A stretch of 61,374 nucleotides of DNA from an uncultured Clostridia bacterium (GTDB taxonomy: Bacteria; Bacillota; Clostridia; TANB77; CAG-508): the NCBI GenBank assembly GCA_944391755.1, contig CALXUT010000039.1, forward strand, positions 1 through 61,374. The letters are read 5' to 3'. Of this stretch, positions 1,012-34,275 are shown in pieces (position 1 is the stretch's first letter; the number at the start of each line of letters is the position of its first letter). Below the pieces are notes generated by a model, which worked only from the letters and a program-made list of their open reading frames with translations, did no database searches and was not told the DNA's origin. The translations under genes and the position numbers were made by a program.

Positions 1012-4000
1012 ATGAAGGGGTTACAATTCTATAAAAGTGAAAAAAAAGAAAAGGGAGCAATTACACTATTTGTGTTATTAGCTTGCTTATTTTTTGTATT
1101 TATATTAACAGGAGTCTATTTATCATTATTAAATAGAGCCCAAGTACAAGAACAGGAAGTACAACAAATACATGACAATTATGCAAAAGATTTAGATCGA
1201 GTAGATGAAATATATGAAGAATTAGCAAAATCAACAATTGTAACATTAAGGCAAGATCCAAGTAATGGAACATGGACGAAAGATAATTTATATGGAGAAA
1301 TTACATTAGATACAAGTGTAACAGGGAAGGCTGTAGAGAAATATCAGTATTCAGAAAATGGAGTAATATGGAAAGATATACCTGGAAAACTTGAATTAAA
1401 TTATACAACGACATTTCCTATGTCAGGAAATAAACCAGAATGGATAAGTGAACCTAAAAGTGATAGTGATTATTATTTTGAGATAGATGAAAGCACAAAT
1501 TCATTGAAACCAAATAACTCAGGAATACATAATTCAACAGCAGAAAGTTATTTTGAAATAGATTTGACTGATTATCCAGAAGCAGAATTAGAAATAACTA
1601 TAAATGCAACAATTTCATGTGAAATAAATTATTATGATTATGGAATAGCTGCTATAATAAGTGAAGATACAGAACAAGAAATAATAAGAGTATGTGGAGA
1701 AACAATGACAGATGATTATACAACCACAATAAAAGGAGGAGAGAAATATTATTTATATATAGGATATATAAAAGATTCAATTGATGAAGAAGCATTTCAA
1801 GACACATTTACAATAAATAAAATAACACTAAAATCAGAAGAAATAGGAGATGGAATAAGATTTAATAATTATGCAAAAACAGATAATAAGGTAGTATTTA
1901 CATTAAATAATGATATAGAAAAAGAAATATATTTAAGAGCAGTATATACAGACAGTACTACAAGTAAATATGGAGATAAAACATCAATAAAGATAGATAA
2001 AAAAGAACCAGTAATAGAAAAAGCAGAACCAGTAATAACATCAAAAGAAGAAGCAAAAATAGAAGTAAAAGCAACAGATAAAGGCTCAGGATTAAAAGGA
2101 TATTATATAAGTACAGAAGATACACCTCCAACAGAAAGTAGTAATTGGATAGAACAAACAATGAATGAATTTACTATTGAAGATTTAATAACAAATACAA
2201 CATATTATTTATGGACTATAGATAAAGTAGGAAATATATCTCAAAGACAAGATATAGTAATAGGAATAGCAAATTATTTAGTAGATTATAGAATAACAAC
2301 AGAAACACTAGCAGAAGCAATAACGGTGGCATCAGATGGATCAATAATAAAATTATTAGGAGATTATACAGATACAAGTACAGCAACATTTAATAAAAGT
2401 GTAACATTTGATGTGCAAAGCTATACATTAACGAGAAGTTCAACCATAACAGTAAGTAGTGGTAAAACGGTAGAAATAACAGGAACAGGAAAAATAACAA
2501 GTGGAACAAGTAGTATATATACTATAACAAATAATGGAACATTAACAGTAAGTAATAGTATAACAATAGAGAATAATTCTACATCAACAAGTTATGCACC
2601 AATATACAACAACTATAGTTCAGCAATCATTAATATAGATGATAATGTACAAATCAATGGTTACTATAGAGGAATTTATAATTATAATGGAACATTAAAT
2701 GTAAATGGAGGAAAGATAGAAGCAACATATTCAAGTAGTAGCGCATATGGAATATATAATTATAGTAGAACAACTGTAAAACTATATATAAATGGAGGAG
2801 AAGTTAAAGGATATTATGGAGTATATAATGGAAGTTCTTCAACTATGGAAATGACAGGAGGAAAAGTAATAGGAACAGGAGCATATGGAGTATATGCATA
2901 TGGAACGACAAATATATATGGAGGAAGAATAGAAGGAAAGACATATGGAATATATGGATATTCATCAAATAAGATAACAATAGGAAGACAGGAAGACGGA
3001 TTAAGTGTTACAAATCCAGCAATCTATGGAGAAACATATGGAGTTGGTATGGGCAATTCTAATTATAATTTTAATTTTTATAATGGAGTATTAATAGGAA
3101 ATACAAGACAAACAACTTATAATGGAAGTATAATTCCAAGAACAGAATATATGCCATATACATATTTTACAGAAAATGATACAAAGTATCATACGATACT
3201 AGCAAAGGCAGTAGAAAATATAACAATGGAAGCAACACCAATTGAATTTACAAATGGAGATGTAACAGTAACTATAACATATCCATATAATAATGATACA
3301 AAACAGTATAGTGAAGATGGAATAGCATGGCAAGATGCAGACCAATATATGCAAGAAGTAATCATAACAGAAAATAAAAAAGTATATGCAAGGACACTAA
3401 ATGAATCAGGAGTAGTAACAGATGAAGAACAAATAGAAATAAATAATATAGATAAAGAAAAACCAACAGCAAGTGTATCGACAACACAAACAAATTATGT
3501 AGTAACAAATTCAAATGGAACGATAGATTTAACATTAACACTTACGGCAAATGATACAGGAGTAAGTAGATTAGATAAAGTACAATATGCATGGGCAGGA
3601 GAAGGAGAAGAAATAAAATATATAGATTTTGAAAGTACAGGAACAACAATAACAAAAAATAGTTTAGGAATAGGGCAATATAATTTATATTTTAATGTGA
3701 CAGATAAAGCAGGAAATAAAGCAGATTTCCAACAAATAAGATATAATGTAAAATATGAAGAACCAGTATGTAAGATAGGAAGTATAACATATACAACAGT
3801 ACAAGCTGCAGTAGATGCATGTAGTAAAACAGCAGGAGATACACAAACGACAATAGAAATGTTAAAAAGTACAGATGAAGAATTTGAAACATATGAAGGA
3901 CAAAATATCATATTAGATTTAAAAGGATATACAGTAGGAAGCTCAAATGCAGAAATACCTCTCTGTATAAACAATGGAACATTTACATTAGGAGATAATA

Positions 4001-7000
4001 GTACAGAAATAGAATATGATCTACCAACAATCTATGGATATAAAGTAGGAATAGAAAATAACAATATATTTAATTTCTATGACGGTAAGATTCAAGGAAT
4101 AACAGCAATACAGGGTGACGCAACAAATACACCAGAAGGATACGGACCAGTATCTACAGGGTATGAAAATGAAATAACAACTGTCCAATTAGGAGTTATA
4201 GAAGGATATGAAGCGAGAATAGAATGGGTATATTATACAAAAGTACAAGAAGCAGTAAATGCAACAAAAAAGTATAGTAATGAGTATAAAGATACTGTAA
4301 CAATAATAAAAGATATACAATTAAAGGAAACTTTAGAAGTAAATGAAAATAAAGATATAATATTAGATTTATGTGGTTATACATTAACTATATCTCCAGG
4401 TAATAATACTTTAGTAAATAATTATGGGAATTTGGAGATAACAGATAGTAGTATAGAACAAACCGGAAAATTAACAATAGATTCGACAAGTAACACTTAT
4501 GGAATCTATAATAATGATATTGGGAATATAAAGATAACAGGGGGAACAATAAATTGTAATAGTTATGGAATCTATAATAGTGGTATAGGAAATATAATAA
4601 TAGAAGGAGGAACAGTAAATAGTGCCTCTTCTGGAATCTATAATAATAATATAGGGAATATACAAATAATTGGTGGAGTAATAAATAATAGTGGTAGTTC
4701 TGGGATTTATAATAAAAGTACAGGAAATGTAAAAGTAATAGGAGGAACAATTAGTGTACACTATTCTGGAATTTATAACTATAGTACAGGAAGTATTGAA
4801 GTAACAGGAGGGATAATAAGCAGTAATACAAGTGGTGTTAGTTCTAGTAAGGGGATTTATAATCATAGTTCGGGAACAGTAACTGTTACAGGAGGAAACA
4901 TAAATAGTAGCAATGCTAGTGGTAATAGTTATGGAATATATAATAGTAATAATGGAAACATAATAATAGGAATAAAAGGAGATGAAATAGTATCTCAAGA
5001 AGAACCATATATAAAAGGAGAGTATACGGGAACATCAACTAATAGTGTTGGATACGGAATATATAATACAAAAGGTAAACTATATTTTTATGATGGAAAA
5101 ATAGAAGGAACAACTAAGGCTATATATGAATTGATAACAGAATATGAAGATAAGACAACTCTAAATTATAATGAAAATGAAACTATACTAACATTATCAA
5201 CGACATTAATACCGGTGGCACAAATAGGAACAACTACATATTTAACATTAGAAGATGCAATAAATGCAGTAGGAAATGAACAAACAACAATTGATCTATT
5301 AAGGAGTATAGTTTATACCGAAAATGATAAGATAATAACAATACCTAATACTGATAATATAGTATTAAATCTAAATGGCTATAGTATAACCTCAGATATG
5401 AAAGAAAAAACAATAGAAAATAATGGAATATTAGAAATAATAGATACAAGTGTAGAGCAAACTGGAACTATAGTTGCAACAAGTGAAGAAACTTTAACAA
5501 ATTTAAACGGAGGAAAATTAACAATATCAAGTGGAATAATAGAAAATAGGACAAAAACGGTAATATATAATGAAGGAGAACTCATAGTGAGTGGAGGGAA
5601 TGTAGATAGTTGTTCTAATTCTTCTAACTATAGTTATGGAATTTATAACAATAGTACGGGAAGTATAAAAGTATTAGGAGGAACGGTAAATGGTAGTAGC
5701 AATACTATTAACAGTAGTTATAGTTATGGAATTTATAATAATGATGAAGGCATAATAGAGATAACTTCGGGAACAGTAAGTAGTGTATGTAATAGTAATA
5801 GATATGGAAGAAGTTATGCTTTATATAATAATAGTATTGGAAATATAAAAATAACTGGAGGATTAGTAAGTAGTAGTTGTATTGTTAAATAGTACAGGCA
5901 ATGTAGTAATAACATCTGGAGAAATAAGTAGTAGTGGAGGCGTTGCTAGTTATGGAATATATAACAATAATATAGGAAATATAATCTTAGGAGTAAAAGA
6001 CGATGGAATAATATCTCAAGAAAATCCAAAAGTAACAAGTGGAATACATAATAATTCTGGAAAATTATTTTTTTATGATGGAAAAATAACAAGCACATCT
6101 AATACAATAATAGGAGATATAGTTGAAATAGAGAATTATACAGAAATAAATATAACTGATGAAATAACAAATAAAGTATTAACATTGCAACGAACAACAA
6201 CAAATGCAGCAAGAGTAAACGGGACAGAATATGACTCAATACAGAAAGCAGTAATTGCATGTGGAACGGAAGAAAGTACGATAGAAATATTAAGAGATTC
6301 AGATCCAGGAGCGACTGTAATAATTGAAGAAAATCAGAATATAACAATAGACCTAAACGGATATATAATCAACAATTACACAGAAATGCAAAATAAAGGA
6401 ACATTAACAATAAAAGATAGTTCATCTGGAGTATACAATAGTGTAAGTGGAACCGTAAATGTAGAAAGTGGAACAGTTAGTTCAAATACATACGGAATAT
6501 ATAATTATTCAAGTTCATCAACAGCAAATGTGAATGGAGGAACTATTTCATCAAATACATATGGAATTTATAATGCCGGAGGAACAACCAACATAAAAGA
6601 AGGCGCAGAAATACAATCAGATATAGGAATATATGCAGCAGGGGGAAGAATCAACATAGGAGAAACAGGAACAATGAATTCGAACAGTCCAATAATTACA
6701 GGAGAAACATATGGGTTATCAGTAACAACAGCTGGAATAGTATATATGTATGACGGTCAAATCAAAGGAAAAACAGGAGCAACCCAAGGATTTATCACCT
6801 ATACAGAAAGTGGATATGCAGTAGCGAATAAAATAGAAGGAGAATATTTTGTAGACTATTTGGCATTAGCAGGAACAGTAAACACAGTAGCAGAAGTAAA
6901 TGGAGTAAGTTATTCAAACCTACAATCAGCAATCAATAGTATCATAGGAGAAGAAACACAAACTATCAAATTAACAAATATTGATGCAACAGGAAGTGGA

Positions 7001-31129: not shown

Positions 31130-33175
31130 ATGTTAGATTTAAATAAAGATGTGAAATATGTAAAAACTGTAGGACCCAATAGAGTAAAATTATTAAATAA
31201 GTTAAATATATATACATTAAAAGATTTAATAACATATTTTCCACGAGATTATGAAGATAGAAGCAAACCGAAAAACTTATATGAATGTGTGGATGGAGAA
31301 GAAGTGCTAATAGAAGCAATGGCAGCAGGAAAGATGAATGAAATGCATAAAGGGAGAATGACAATCAGCAGATTAATTGTAAAAGATCAAACTGGAACTT
31401 GTTATATAACATGGTTTAATCAAGGATATTTAAGAGATAAATTTCAACCAGGCAGGATGTATCGCTTTTTTGGAAAAATATCTGTAAAAAATGGAAGAAT
31501 AGAAATGAATTCTCCTGTATATGATGAAATAGACCAAAGCAAAAATACTGGAAAAATCATACCAATCTACCCATTAACATATGAATTAAAACAATCCACA
31601 TTAAGAAGAATCATAGAAAATGGGTTAGCAGAGGTGAAAGGTCAATTACCCGAAACACTTCCAGAATATATATTAAAAGAATATGATTTATGGGAAATCA
31701 ATAAAACAATAGAAAGAATCCACTTTCCAATCGATTTTTCGGATTTTAATAAAGCACGAGAAAGATTGGTATTTGAAGAATTACTTACAATGCAATTAGC
31801 TTTATTAAAATTAAAAAATCATTATGAACATGACAAAAATGGAATACAATTTAGCAGAGATGTACATATGTCAGATATTATCAATATATTACCATTTCAA
31901 TTAACAAAAGCACAATTACGAGTATTAGAAGAAATTGATAGAGATATGGAAAGCACTAGACCAATGAATCGATTATTGCAAGGAGATGTTGGCTCTGGAA
32001 AAACAGTAGTAGCGATGATTGCTGCATATAAGGCTGTAAAATCAGGGTACCAAGCAACGATTATGGCACCAACAGCAATACTAGCAAGTCAACATTTAGA
32101 AAGCTTTCAATCTATTTTATCAAAATTTGGTATCAGATGTGAACTATTAATATCCAATATCACCAAAAAGAAAAAAACAGAGATATTAGAAAAGCTACAA
32201 AATGGAGAAATCGATATCTTAATAGGGACACATGCAATATTAGAAGAAAATGTCGTTTTTAAAAATTTAGGTTTAGTCATAACAGATGAACAGCATAGGT
32301 TTGGAGTAAAACAAAGAAGTACAATTGCTTCAAAAGCTCAAAATCCTGATATTATCGCTATGTCAGCAACTCCCATACCAAGAACGCTAGCATTAATTTT
32401 ATATGGAGATTTAGATATATCCATTATAGATGAACTTCCACCAAACAGAAAGAAAATAGAAACTTATGCAGTCAGAAAAAATATGGAAGAAAGACTAAAT
32501 GCTTTTATAAGAAAACAAATTGATGAAGGCAGGCAGGCATATATTGTATGTCCATTAGTAGAAGAAAACGAAGAAATGGAATTAAAATCTGTTATAGAAC
32601 TTGCAGAAAAATACCAAAAAGAAACCTTTAGTAATTATAAAGTGGCATATTTACATGGAAAAATGAAACCAAAAGAAAAAGATGAAATTATGCAAAGATT
32701 TAAAGAGGGAGAAATTCAAATTCTAGTTGCAACTACGGTTATAGAAGTTGGGGTGAATGTGCCAAATGCAAGTATCATGGTAGTAGAAAATGCAGAAAGA
32801 TTCGGCTTAGCACAATTACATCAATTAAGAGGAAGAGTTGGAAGAGGAGAATATCAATCCTATTGTATATTAAAATACGAGGGAAATGGAGAAACAACAA
32901 GACAAAGAATGAAAGTTATGTGTGATACAAATGATGGATTTATCATATCAGAAAAAGACTTAGAATTAAGAGGTTCAGGAGATTTCTTTGGAACAGAACA
33001 ACATGGATTACCAGAATTTAAAATTGCGAATTTGTTTGAAGATATAGGAACTCTAAAAAAAGTTCAAAAATTGGCAATCGATATTATGGAAAAAGATCCA
33101 ATGTTAGAGGATGAAAAAAATAAGAAATTAAATGAATTAGTAAAAGAAAAATTTAATTCAAGAATTGAAATTTAA
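31130..33175 (+). CDS. recG: ATP-dependent DNA helicase RecG
   Basis: LQGDVGSGKT, DEQHRFGV, MSATPIPRT, AERFGLAQLHQLRGRVGR and DLELRGSGD. Confidence 0.98.
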   Translation: MLDLNKDVKYVKTVGPNRVKLLNKLNIYTLKDLITYFPRDYEDRSKPKNLYECVDGEEVLIEAMAAGKMNEMHKGRMTISRLIVKDQTGTCYITWFNQGYLRDKFQPGRMYRFFGKISVKNGRIEMNSPVYDEIDQSKNTGKIIPIYPLTYELKQSTLRRIIENGLAEVKGQLPETLPEYILKEYDLWEINKTIERIHFPIDFSDFNKARERLVFEELLTMQLALLKLKNHYEHDKNGIQFSRDVHMSDIINILPFQLTKAQLRVLEEIDRDMESTRPMNRLLQGDVGSGKTVVAMIAAYKAVKSGYQATIMAPTAILASQHLESFQSILSKFGIRCELLISNITKKKKTEILEKLQNGEIDILIGTHAILEENVVFKNLGLVITDEQHRFGVKQRSTIASKAQNPDIIAMSATPIPRTLALILYGDLDISIIDELPPNRKKIETYAVRKNMEERLNAFIRKQIDEGRQAYIVCPLVEENEEMELKSVIELAEKYQKETFSNYKVAYLHGKMKPKEKDEIMQRFKEGEIQILVATTVIEVGVNVPNASIMVVENAERFGLAQLHQLRGRVGRGEYQSYCILKYEGNGETTRQRMKVMCDTNDGFIISEKDLELRGSGDFFGTEQHGLPEFKIANLFEDIGTLKKVQKLAIDIMEKDPMLEDEKNKKLNELVKEKFNSRIEI

Positions 33176-33182
33176 GTTAAAA

Positions 33183-33204
33183 TGGCACTGGTTCCTAAGA
33201 CCAG
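33183..33204 (-). repeat. Exact 22-nt inverted copy of the tRNA-Leu anticodon arm
   Basis: tggcactggttcctaagaccag is the reverse complement of 33585-33606. Confidence 0.9.
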
Positions 33205-33231
33205 TGATAAAGGAAAAGGATGTAGATAAAT

Positions 33232-33420
33232 ATGTTATGGATAATTTTAAGATTAATAGGAGCATTAATAGCGCTTGCAGGAGTTATTTTAATATATGAT
33301 GCAAGAATTATTACCAAAAAAGCATTTGGATTCGGAGATCAAAATGAGGCCACTAGTGGTTTGAAAATAGTAGGTACTATACTTAGCTGTATAGGAGCGT
33401 TAATTATATTTTTTTGTTAG
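33232..33420 (+). CDS. Small two-TM hypothetical membrane protein
   Basis: 62 aa with two hydrophobic helices; purine-rich RBS upstream. Confidence 0.7.
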   Translation: MLWIILRLIGALIALAGVILIYDARIITKKAFGFGDQNEATSGLKIVGTILSCIGALIIFFC

Positions 33421-33508
33421 TGAATGAATTTTGAAAAAATATCTGATTTTAGAAAATCATAGTTTCAAAAAATGAGTTCAAAAAATTAATAAAAAAGGTT
33501 AAAAATTA

Positions 33509-33537
33509 TTGACAATGTATTTTAATTATGGTATTAT
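33509..33537 (+). promoter_or_regulatory. sigmaA promoter of tRNA-Leu
   Basis: TTGACA-17 nt-TATTAT with extended TG. Confidence 0.7.
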
Positions 33538-33557
33538 ATACATTGTCAATAATTTTT

Positions 33558-33641
33558 GCGGATGTGGCGGAACTGGCAGACGCGCTGGTCTTAGGAACCA
33601 GTGCCAACGGCGTGGAGGTTCGAGTCCTCTCATCCGCACCA
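33558..33641 (+). tRNA. tRNA-Leu(TAG)
   Basis: Cloverleaf with long variable arm, anticodon arm ctggt-ctTAGga-accag, GGTTCGAGTCC and CCA. Confidence 0.97.
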
Positions 33642-33768
33642 ACTTAGTATCAAGCAACAAAATGACTTGATACTTTATTTATTTTTCACAGTGATTTAAA
33701 TCAACAAATTAATTCTTAAAATTTACTTAGTTAACCCAAAAAATTAAATATATAAAGGAGGAATAGCT

Positions 33769-34275
33769 ATGAAAACAAACTTAGCTAATTTAATGAACAT
33801 CGTTGTTGATGAGGAGAAAAGATTTTCATCACTTGGATATGACATAAAAGATCATGCTTACAGTGTTTCTGCACAAGAATTAGACGGAAGAACAACTATT
33901 ATAGAAGACTATCAAGAAGACTTTACAAAAGAATTTGAAGAATACAAAAAAACACAAGAAAAAATTACAAAAATAAAGGCAACCATCTATGAGAAAAACA
34001 ACACATTTAAATTACCAGATGGAAGAACAATTCAAGAAGCTATTGTAGATAATACAAATTTAAGAAAAATGAAGACAATATATAATTATCTAATATCTCA
34101 GAGAGATAGCAAAAGAAGAGTTACAGAAGTCAATAATTCCTATTTTGAATGTAAAACGGTGAATTATGATGTAAACAAATTGAAACAAGAATATGATAAA
34201 CTAGAGAAAAAAATACAAGATACAGACTTTGAAATATCAAAACTAAATTCCATAGAATTTGACATAAATATATAA
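33769..34275 (+). CDS. All-helical coiled-coil protein resembling the DIP1984/DUF6847 family
   Basis: TIQEAIVD, V(N)YDVNKLKQEYDKL and DFEISKLNSIEFDI echo the family pattern; 168 aa; RBS aaggagg. Confidence 0.6.
   Translation: MKTNLANLMNIVVDEEKRFSSLGYDIKDHAYSVSAQELDGRTTIIEDYQEDFTKEFEEYKKTQEKITKIKATIYEKNNTFKLPDGRTIQEAIVDNTNLRKMKTIYNYLISQRDSKRRVTEVNNSYFECKTVNYDVNKLKQEYDKLEKKIQDTDFEISKLNSIEFDINI

Follow-up and report, generated by a model that had tools for sequence, protein, structure and literature searches.

A 22-nt inverted copy of the tRNA-Leu(UAG) anticodon arm behind recG in an uncultured Clostridia bacterium, a probable template-switch relic

In the genome of an uncultured gut Clostridia bacterium, the short spacer between recG and a small membrane-protein ORF carries a perfect 22-nt reverse-complement copy of the anticodon arm of the tRNA-Leu(UAG) gene lying downstream. 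This copy is inherited and lineage-specific, occurring in one small clade and one neighbouring species. The explanation that we favour, and consider probable, is that the copy is an inherited relic of a template-switch error that would have written the complement of the tRNA-Leu(UAG) arm into the spacer, and that its product is now a plain stem-loop in the transcript of recG and the small ORF. Mutations of this type are already known, and the copy is a tidy example of them.

The whole stretch of DNA that was analysed, referred to here as the window (61,374 nt), belongs to a 1.48-Mb genome of 51 contigs (G000), and the features relevant to this analysis are collected in Table 1. The sequence of 33183-33204 is TGGCACTGGTTCCTAAGACCAG, and it is, as the initial annotation had stated, the exact reverse complement of 33585-33606, encompassing the anticodon stem-loop and TGCCA. 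The copy starts at the eighth base after the recG stop codon (33173-33175), leaving 7 nt between them, and it ends 27 nt before the ATG of the small ORF. The two arms are 380 nt apart and enclose the 62-aa ORF, the tRNA promoter and the 5' part of the tRNA, again in agreement with the original description. When up to three mismatches were allowed, these two segments were the sole matching sites in the 61-kb window, and the same two were the only sites of the 22-mer genome-wide; 100 dinucleotide shuffles returned no match to the 22-mer. The borders of identity are abrupt, with the bases just outside the copy on either side failing to match the tRNA and no tRNA-like sequence found beyond the 22 nt in the window flanks in either orientation.

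Table 1. Coordinates of the features discussed, given as positions in the window
Feature	Position	Strand	Basis or remark
recG helicase gene, 681 aa	31130..33175	+	ORF; Pfam RecG_wedge/DEAD/Helicase_C/RecG_dom3_C on identical products
22-nt inverted copy of tRNA-Leu(UAG) nt 27-48	33183..33204	+	22/22 reverse complement, sharp borders
Hairpin of copy and 2 flanking nt, CACTGGT / TCCTAAG / ACCAGTG, 7 bp/7 nt	33186..33206	+	fold
Small membrane ORF, 62 aa, two hydrophobic helices, FGFGDQNEATSG linker	33232..33420	+	
Perfect 20-nt palindrome around tRNA-Leu promoter	33501..33557	.	conserved in relatives
tRNA-Leu(UAG) gene	33558..33641	+	ARAGORN; Rfam 56.7 bits
Source arm: anticodon stem-loop (nt 27-43) and TGCCA (nt 44-48)	33585..33606	+	

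Exact look-ups of the small protein returned seven ENA metagenome contigs originating from varied samples and assemblers, and it is these look-ups that supplied the independent assemblies, an exact 34-nt junction scan of metagenome contigs having given none. In six of the seven contigs recG is 99.9-100% identical to that of the window, and the identical 22-mer occupies the same position; in the seventh (L056), at 95.6% recG nucleotide identity, the copy reads TGTCAC... and matches at 21/22. Because independent assemblies generated with different assemblers carry the same sequence in the same species, the copy is not an assembly artefact, which the initial annotation had named as a possible refutation. 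The 22-nt inverted repeat is real and is not due to chance.

The gene order recG, small ORF, tRNA-Leu is ancestral in the genus and the small ORF following recG is conserved genus-wide; no Pfam family scored above cut-off in the 62-aa ORF. The segment preceding its start (window 33214-33234), with the motif AAAAGGATGT(A/T)GAT, shows genus-wide conservation well beyond a ribosome-binding site, and has an in-frame ATG 12 nt upstream that is followed by TAG in the window (a start-stop) and by TTG in many relatives. The tRNA-Leu promoter is of the form TTGACA-17-TATTAT (33509-33537; -35 at 33509-33514, -10 at 33532-33537), and the palindrome surrounding it has a left arm, AAAAATTATTGACAATGTAT, that contains the -35 TTGACA, and a right arm, ATACATTGTCAATAATTTTT, that reaches from the -10 box to the beginning of the tRNA. 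The palindrome core (TTGACAATGTAT/ATACATTGTCAA) is present in L060 and L063, at 85-94% recG identity, and absent in L069/L070; the palindrome could be an operator or a two-way promoter. Downstream of the tRNA, the segment corresponding to window 33642-33768 is polymorphic: the window and L060 run directly into a DUF6847 gene, and in close relatives (L056, L067/L076, L063/L075, L069/L070) the tRNA is followed by 2.4-4.7 kb of small unknown genes, the block of L075 also containing an Endonuclease_NS_2 gene with a small neighbour. Considered as a source of the copy, this block was rejected as a deletion/insertion polymorphism without an integrase or a long tRNA repeat at its ends, where only a short ACCA repeat was found. 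Several metagenome contigs break within or shortly after the tRNA, the cause probably being this downstream polymorphism.

Relatives gathered through recG homologues form a graded series, with 22/22 matching positions in the window and six further contigs, 21/22 in L056/L067/L068, 20/22 in L060 and 17/22 in L061/L062; the copy is absent from lineages at or below about 85% recG nucleotide identity. A maximum-likelihood tree of recG nucleotide sequences places all bearers of the spacer copy except L097 in one clade with 99-100% support, and L097 in an adjacent unresolved polytomy; ancestral states rest on these few lineages and on that polytomy. In a sample of 338 genomes of the genus, the hairpin type (...CAGTG) was found only in G000 and G300 (the L097 genome), a third match, in G092, being a partial-tRNA att scar and not a hairpin. 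Across 200 other species, each match to the arm was the tRNA itself (...CCAGCG), with no spacer copy.

The copy has diverged at about the same pace as recG (2/22 over a recG path of 0.08; 5/22 over 0.22), and the tRNA-Leu arm is identical across copy-bearing lineages, the contigs of L061/L062 ending before the tRNA-Leu gene. The same C>A change arose independently in L060 and L061, and L097 carries a loop C>T; these changes re-register or lengthen the plus-strand helix and reduce complementarity to the tRNA. The 7-nt loop TCCTAAG is unchanged in four lineages (window, L056/L067, L060 and L061), and the single loop change in L097, a C>U in the transcript, leaves a G.U pair with the anticodon loop still possible. 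The copy of L097, GCACTGGT-TTCTAAG-ACCAGTGC, matches at 19/22, and its hairpin is kept at 20/21 positions over a recG path of about 0.28, with spacer flanks that are otherwise unalignable; the hairpin is invariant in 10 contigs of the L097 species. Such preservation argues for a measure of constraint, for recurrent re-templating or for a separate origin. The L097 species (L291-L300) also has two sortase genes inserted between the small ORF and tRNA-Leu, some of its strains carry an additional 94-aa minus-strand ORF in the same interval, and in L296 a large serine recombinase gene lies just past the tRNA.

In relatives, the spacer following recG contains unrelated hairpins, intrinsic terminators, GC-rich hairpin repeats or nothing, and a spacer alignment reveals that the relatives' hairpins fall at the same columns, between shared flanks. 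GC-rich hairpin repeats occur in the post-recG spacers of L024 (G021), L029 (G006) and L102/L103, for instance as tandem GTCCCCACTGGTTCCGGGTTTAAATGGGGAC or as arrays of GGGGTCGGTCCC.../GGGACCGACCCC; the G021 (L024) repeat unit shares 10 nt, CACTGGTTCC, with the tRNA-Leu complement, a likeness that was treated as chance. Each of 55 distinct spacers was compared with 46 anticodon arms, and a shuffle that preserves hairpins served as the control; under it, 0.05 matches of at least 15/17 were expected per replicate and none of 16/17 was seen in 20 replicates. Two kinds of spacer only stood above this control, the Leu type and L095. A direct-orientation likeness of the L086-group spacers to the tRNA-Leu arm was not above background in Smith-Waterman comparisons with all arms, and an apparent direct tRNA remnant at the 3' flank of the copy (6/9 match) was due to the AAAGG ribosome-binding region conserved in all relatives.

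The element of L095, GAGTA-CAGGC-TTAGAAG-GCCTG-TGGTC, starts at the 13th spacer base, as in the window, and fits nt 22-48 of that genome's own tRNA-Arg(UCU), the gene for which is on a different contig from the spacer element (3554-3580 = G219/G135 C21:5388-5410). The fit reaches 25/27 when the 7-nt loop is taken as its reverse complement and the stems and flanks are read directly; the two arms are exact reverse complements of each other. This pattern of spacer inversion and arm homogenisation is the known footprint of intra-hairpin template switching, as set out in PMC8604942. In L228, whose recG is 97.9% identical to that of L095, one stem pair and the central loop base have already been lost, and L063/L082 present a more decayed version of the L095 element; among the 147 genus genomes at least 95% complete, only the L095 genome has an Arg-type element. 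Since the flanks AGTA ... TG.TCA are common to L061, with a Leu core, and L095, with an Arg core, the spacer is homologous, with an overwritten core. Furthermore, the 5' flank reads TGGCA in the sub-clade of the window and AAG(T/C)A in L061, L097 and L095, and these two or three changes, all toward the tRNA-Leu complement, suggest a second templated extension. In L095 the entire tRNA-Leu unit (promoter, gene and downstream flank; 3855-4440) is inverted relative to recG, and the small ORF is separated from the tRNA by an inserted 101-aa ORF that is GC-rich and looks foreign.

For the hairpin formed by the copy (Table 1), ViennaRNA predicts an extra U.G pair, which brings the stem to 8 pairs and the loop to 5 nt; for the 71-nt context the folding energy is -12.6 kcal/mol, with the hairpin present in both the MFE and the centroid structure. 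No intrinsic terminator was called on either strand and no U-tract lies 3' of the hairpin, and an Rfam cmscan of 32900-33900, with E up to 10, detected the tRNA only, with no T-box and no known sRNA. A search for a family of anticodon-arm copies in G000 elicited 12 12-mer matches against a shuffle expectation of 13.9, the long match being located at the recG spacer only, so that the genome holds a single non-tRNA copy and not the many copies of REP-type elements. The stem-favouring derived changes, together with how well the hairpin has been preserved in L097, may indicate weak selection on hairpin stability. By analogy, the structure could persist under weak constraint as an RNA hairpin of the REP-like intercistronic sort and might, for example, protect the 3' end of recG, as REP-type stem-loops do.

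Template switching produces reverse-complement copies of nearby sequence and makes perfect hairpins in one step (PMC8794818), and it is further described as repairing or lengthening existing stems, homogenising and expanding inverted-repeat arms and inverting spacers (PMC8604942, PMC13100816). Under the explanation that we favour, the spacer between recG and the small ORF would have held an older hairpin with stems resembling the tRNA-Leu arm complement (C.GG./.CC.G), and in the ancestor of the small clade this hairpin would have been overwritten from the tRNA gene 380 nt downstream by a replication template switch of the quasipalindrome type. In the lineage of the window the identity tract was probably lengthened again, from about 17-19 nt to 22 nt, and the stem-loop would since have persisted between the cistrons, drifting. 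The copy is an exact reverse complement of a nearby donor with sharp borders, as such an event would leave it, and a single event may underlie a tree in which copy-bearers define one clade, apart from L097 in the polytomy, with outgroup spacers sharing the flanks and differing in the core. Several observations count against this account, among them the preservation of the L097 hairpin described above. The donor distance of 380 nt (2.5-2.9 kb in L097, where the two sortase genes are inserted) is larger than in most documented short-range events; two different tRNA-derived hairpins at one spacer are more than a single random accident would predict; and, for a plain relic, the loop is conspicuously stable across lineages.

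Several alternatives, some of them raised in the initial annotation, invoke DNA recombination. The repeats could bracket an invertible switch in which inversion of 33205-33584 would turn off tRNA-Leu(UAG) and the small ORF, and a promoter-containing segment between perfect inverted repeats (22/22, 380 nt apart) is indeed what such a switch would require. The genome also encodes one large serine recombinase and four tyrosine recombinases, two or more of which are Xer-sized, but the corresponding PF00589 and PF00239 matches are on other contigs (C49, C40, C10, C21 and C8); neither family has a match within the 61-kb window, as had been remarked at the outset, and no dedicated recombinase adjoins the repeats. 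Moreover, all contigs with both arms (20/20) show one orientation, the junctions J1 and J2 predicted for the inverted state (AAAATGGCACTGGTTCCTAAGACCAGCGCGTCTG, CTTTATCACTGGTCTTAGGAACCAGTGCCAACGGCGTG) are absent from every locus and from the genome, and in relatives the repeat has decayed. In a complete genome of the genus there are 35 tRNAs, and the Leu anticodons across all tRNAs collected in the genus are CAA, UAA and UAG only; tRNA-Leu(UAG) must consequently read all CUN codons, of which recG alone has 12, and splitting this sole CUN-reading tRNA should be lethal. We reject the invertible switch, the probability of which we regard as close to nil. Integrative-element att sites in tRNA genes are said to include an anticodon-loop crossover class, reportedly set out by Williams in 2002, and relatives do carry elements in the same tRNA. 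In G107 (L052/L167, C42) a 398-aa tyrosine integrase adjoins the intact tRNA next to recG, and at a distance of 10.8 kb, beside rlmD, a partial tRNA copy spans the anticodon loop through CCA. G051 (L168) and G196 (L169) have a similar arrangement, and in all three the displaced original 3' part of the tRNA is retained at the element's far end; only for G107, whose element includes a DUF3800 gene, was the integrase confirmed. The scars in these relatives are direct, about 52-57 nt long, and bound elements of 10-17 kb in G107, G051 and G196, and that of G092 (L173), at a contig end, is a displaced 3' part of the tRNA from nt 27. The original remark that island scars are direct and not inverted was thus borne out at this very tRNA. 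The 22-mer, in contrast, is inverted, covers nt 27-48 only, without reaching the tRNA 3' end, has unrelated flanks, and bounds 380 bp of ancestral chromosome in which the small ORF and tRNA promoter are arranged just as in relatives that lack the copy, in place of integrase-bearing foreign DNA. An integration scar is therefore rejected; the proposal of a scar of an old event survives insofar as the copy is an inherited relic, probably of one origin, but not as an integrase scar. A related possibility is that the copy is a pseudo-attB, or another footprint, of a tyrosine integrase using the tRNA-Leu(UAG) anticodon arm as core site. The elements in the same tRNA, the G092 scar beginning exactly at nt 27 (flank GCA before CTGGT) and a hairpin geometry resembling a core site, with symmetric arms around a 7-bp overlap, would agree with it. 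Recombinase crossovers, however, create no new copies, true scars take the direct form just described, and it would be a coincidence for an event at a secondary site to fall 380 bp from the primary one; G000 furthermore lacks such an element, a scar or a close integrase homologue (best 29% identity), and a G107-type integrase was discarded as the cognate enzyme. We consider this reading quite improbable.

The remaining alternatives concern the tRNA itself or its pairing with the transcript. The copy could be the remnant of a second tRNA gene, or of a tRNA-gene fragment brought by a mobile element, in the spacer between recG and the small ORF, the rest having been lost and the arm flipped in place. 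L043 (G087 C3:190793-191238) carries tRNA-Leu(UAG) twice, once after the small ORF and once, as a complete additional gene, in exactly this spacer, and the L095 element, with direct tRNA-Arg flanks and only the loop flipped, would suit such a history. Yet G087 is a distant species, nothing outside the 22 nt in the window resembles the tRNA in either orientation, the 5-nt extension TGGCA fits the inverted reading only, and no tRNA-Arg was found near recG in about 200 recG-region loci of relatives, which makes this origin unlikely. It is likewise rather unlikely that the hairpin is a selected tRNA-pairing RNA, the loop of which would kiss the anticodon loop of tRNA-Leu(UAG), or of tRNA-Arg(UCU) in L095, or the 22 nt of which would act as antisense, either tuning how the message of the small ORF or recG is translated, processed or degraded, or titrating the tRNA or its fragments. 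Several features are consistent with this role: the complementarity is perfect in the window, the loop is constant in the four lineages named above and its change in L097 conserves a G.U pair, both tRNA-derived hairpins present on the mRNA strand a loop complementary to an anticodon loop, and the L097 hairpin is better kept than its own flanks. Outside the loop, however, complementarity decays (22, 21, 20 and then 17 matching positions out of 22 among sister lineages) although the tRNA arm does not vary, so that of the antisense proposal in the initial annotation the complementarity is real and its maintenance by selection is not seen. The changes in L060, L061 and L097 draw loop bases into the stem, the Arg-type loop lost the central codon base in L228 at 2% recG divergence, and the remaining species of the 338-genome sample, which share the order of recG, small ORF and tRNA, lack the element. 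The m1G37 and U34 modifications would weaken pairing between the hairpin loop and the anticodon loop. A T-box, with a Stem I specifier loop and a T-box/antiterminator detectable through Rfam, or any other Rfam family besides the tRNA, was not found by cmscan at the locus. A more ambitious version, which we hold to be improbable, is that the spacer would host a selected, swappable 'anti-anticodon' hairpin, with a loop exactly complementary to the anticodon loop of a chosen tRNA, installed and refreshed by templated copying from the tRNA gene, and that loop-loop kissing would couple expression of the small membrane protein or recG to how abundant that tRNA is or what state it is in; the chosen tRNA, within that same improbable proposal, would be tRNA-Leu(UAG) in the clade of the window and in L097, and tRNA-Arg(UCU) in L095. 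If true, a tRNA-pairing hairpin would be a minimal tRNA sensor of a new kind, with no relation to T-boxes.

Taken together, these data suggest that the template-switch relic represents a clean natural case in which templated copying from a neighbouring tRNA gene would have placed a ready-made hairpin in an intergenic spacer, where it has since decayed, with graded intermediates in wild strains. Together with the second case found at this position, in which a fragment of tRNA-Arg carries a flipped loop, this makes the locus useful for studies of template-switch mutagenesis and of the birth of RNA hairpins. The locus also cautions against taking every perfect inverted repeat that involves a tRNA gene for a recombination site.

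Compared with known systems, the copy shares with invertible switches such as fimS, hin and the shufflons the inverted repeats around a promoter-bearing segment, but it has no neighbouring cognate recombinase and no second orientation in any assembly, its repeats are not conserved, and its inverted state would destroy an essential tRNA. With attL/attR scars in tRNA genes it has in common the same tRNA and the same anticodon-arm sub-site, as carried by G107, G051, G196 and G092, and differs from them in orientation, in ending at nt 48 instead of the CCA end, and in enclosing 380 bp instead of 10-17 kb. As in the T-box specifier loop or the E. coli thrS operator, an mRNA hairpin loop is related to an anticodon loop, here displaying the cognate codon CUA; unlike those leaders, the locus has no Stem I, T-box or antiterminator architecture and no Rfam match, the hairpin complements the arm rather than mimicking it, is not conserved, and is not upstream of an aminoacyl-tRNA synthetase or amino-acid gene. 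REP-like intercistronic stem-loops are similar in being stable hairpins without a U-tract between co-oriented genes, and relatives have hairpins or repeats at this spot, but the hairpin described here is single-copy in its genome and its mRNA-stabilising role is putative. Relative to documented template-switch mutations (quasipalindromes, Ripley model; Monttinen & Loytynoja 2022, PMC8794818), the copy differs in that its donor, a tRNA gene, lies at a distance of 380 nt instead of a few to tens of nt, in that the piece copied was already a complete hairpin, and in that its mechanism is read from sequence patterns alone. The correspondence with these mutations nonetheless extends to the reverse-complement copying of a nearby segment, the sharp borders and a putatively single origin, to the creation of a perfect stem, and to arms that would later have been homogenised and extended, with the loop flip and arm homogenisation of L095 matching what is described in PMC8604942 and PMC13100816.
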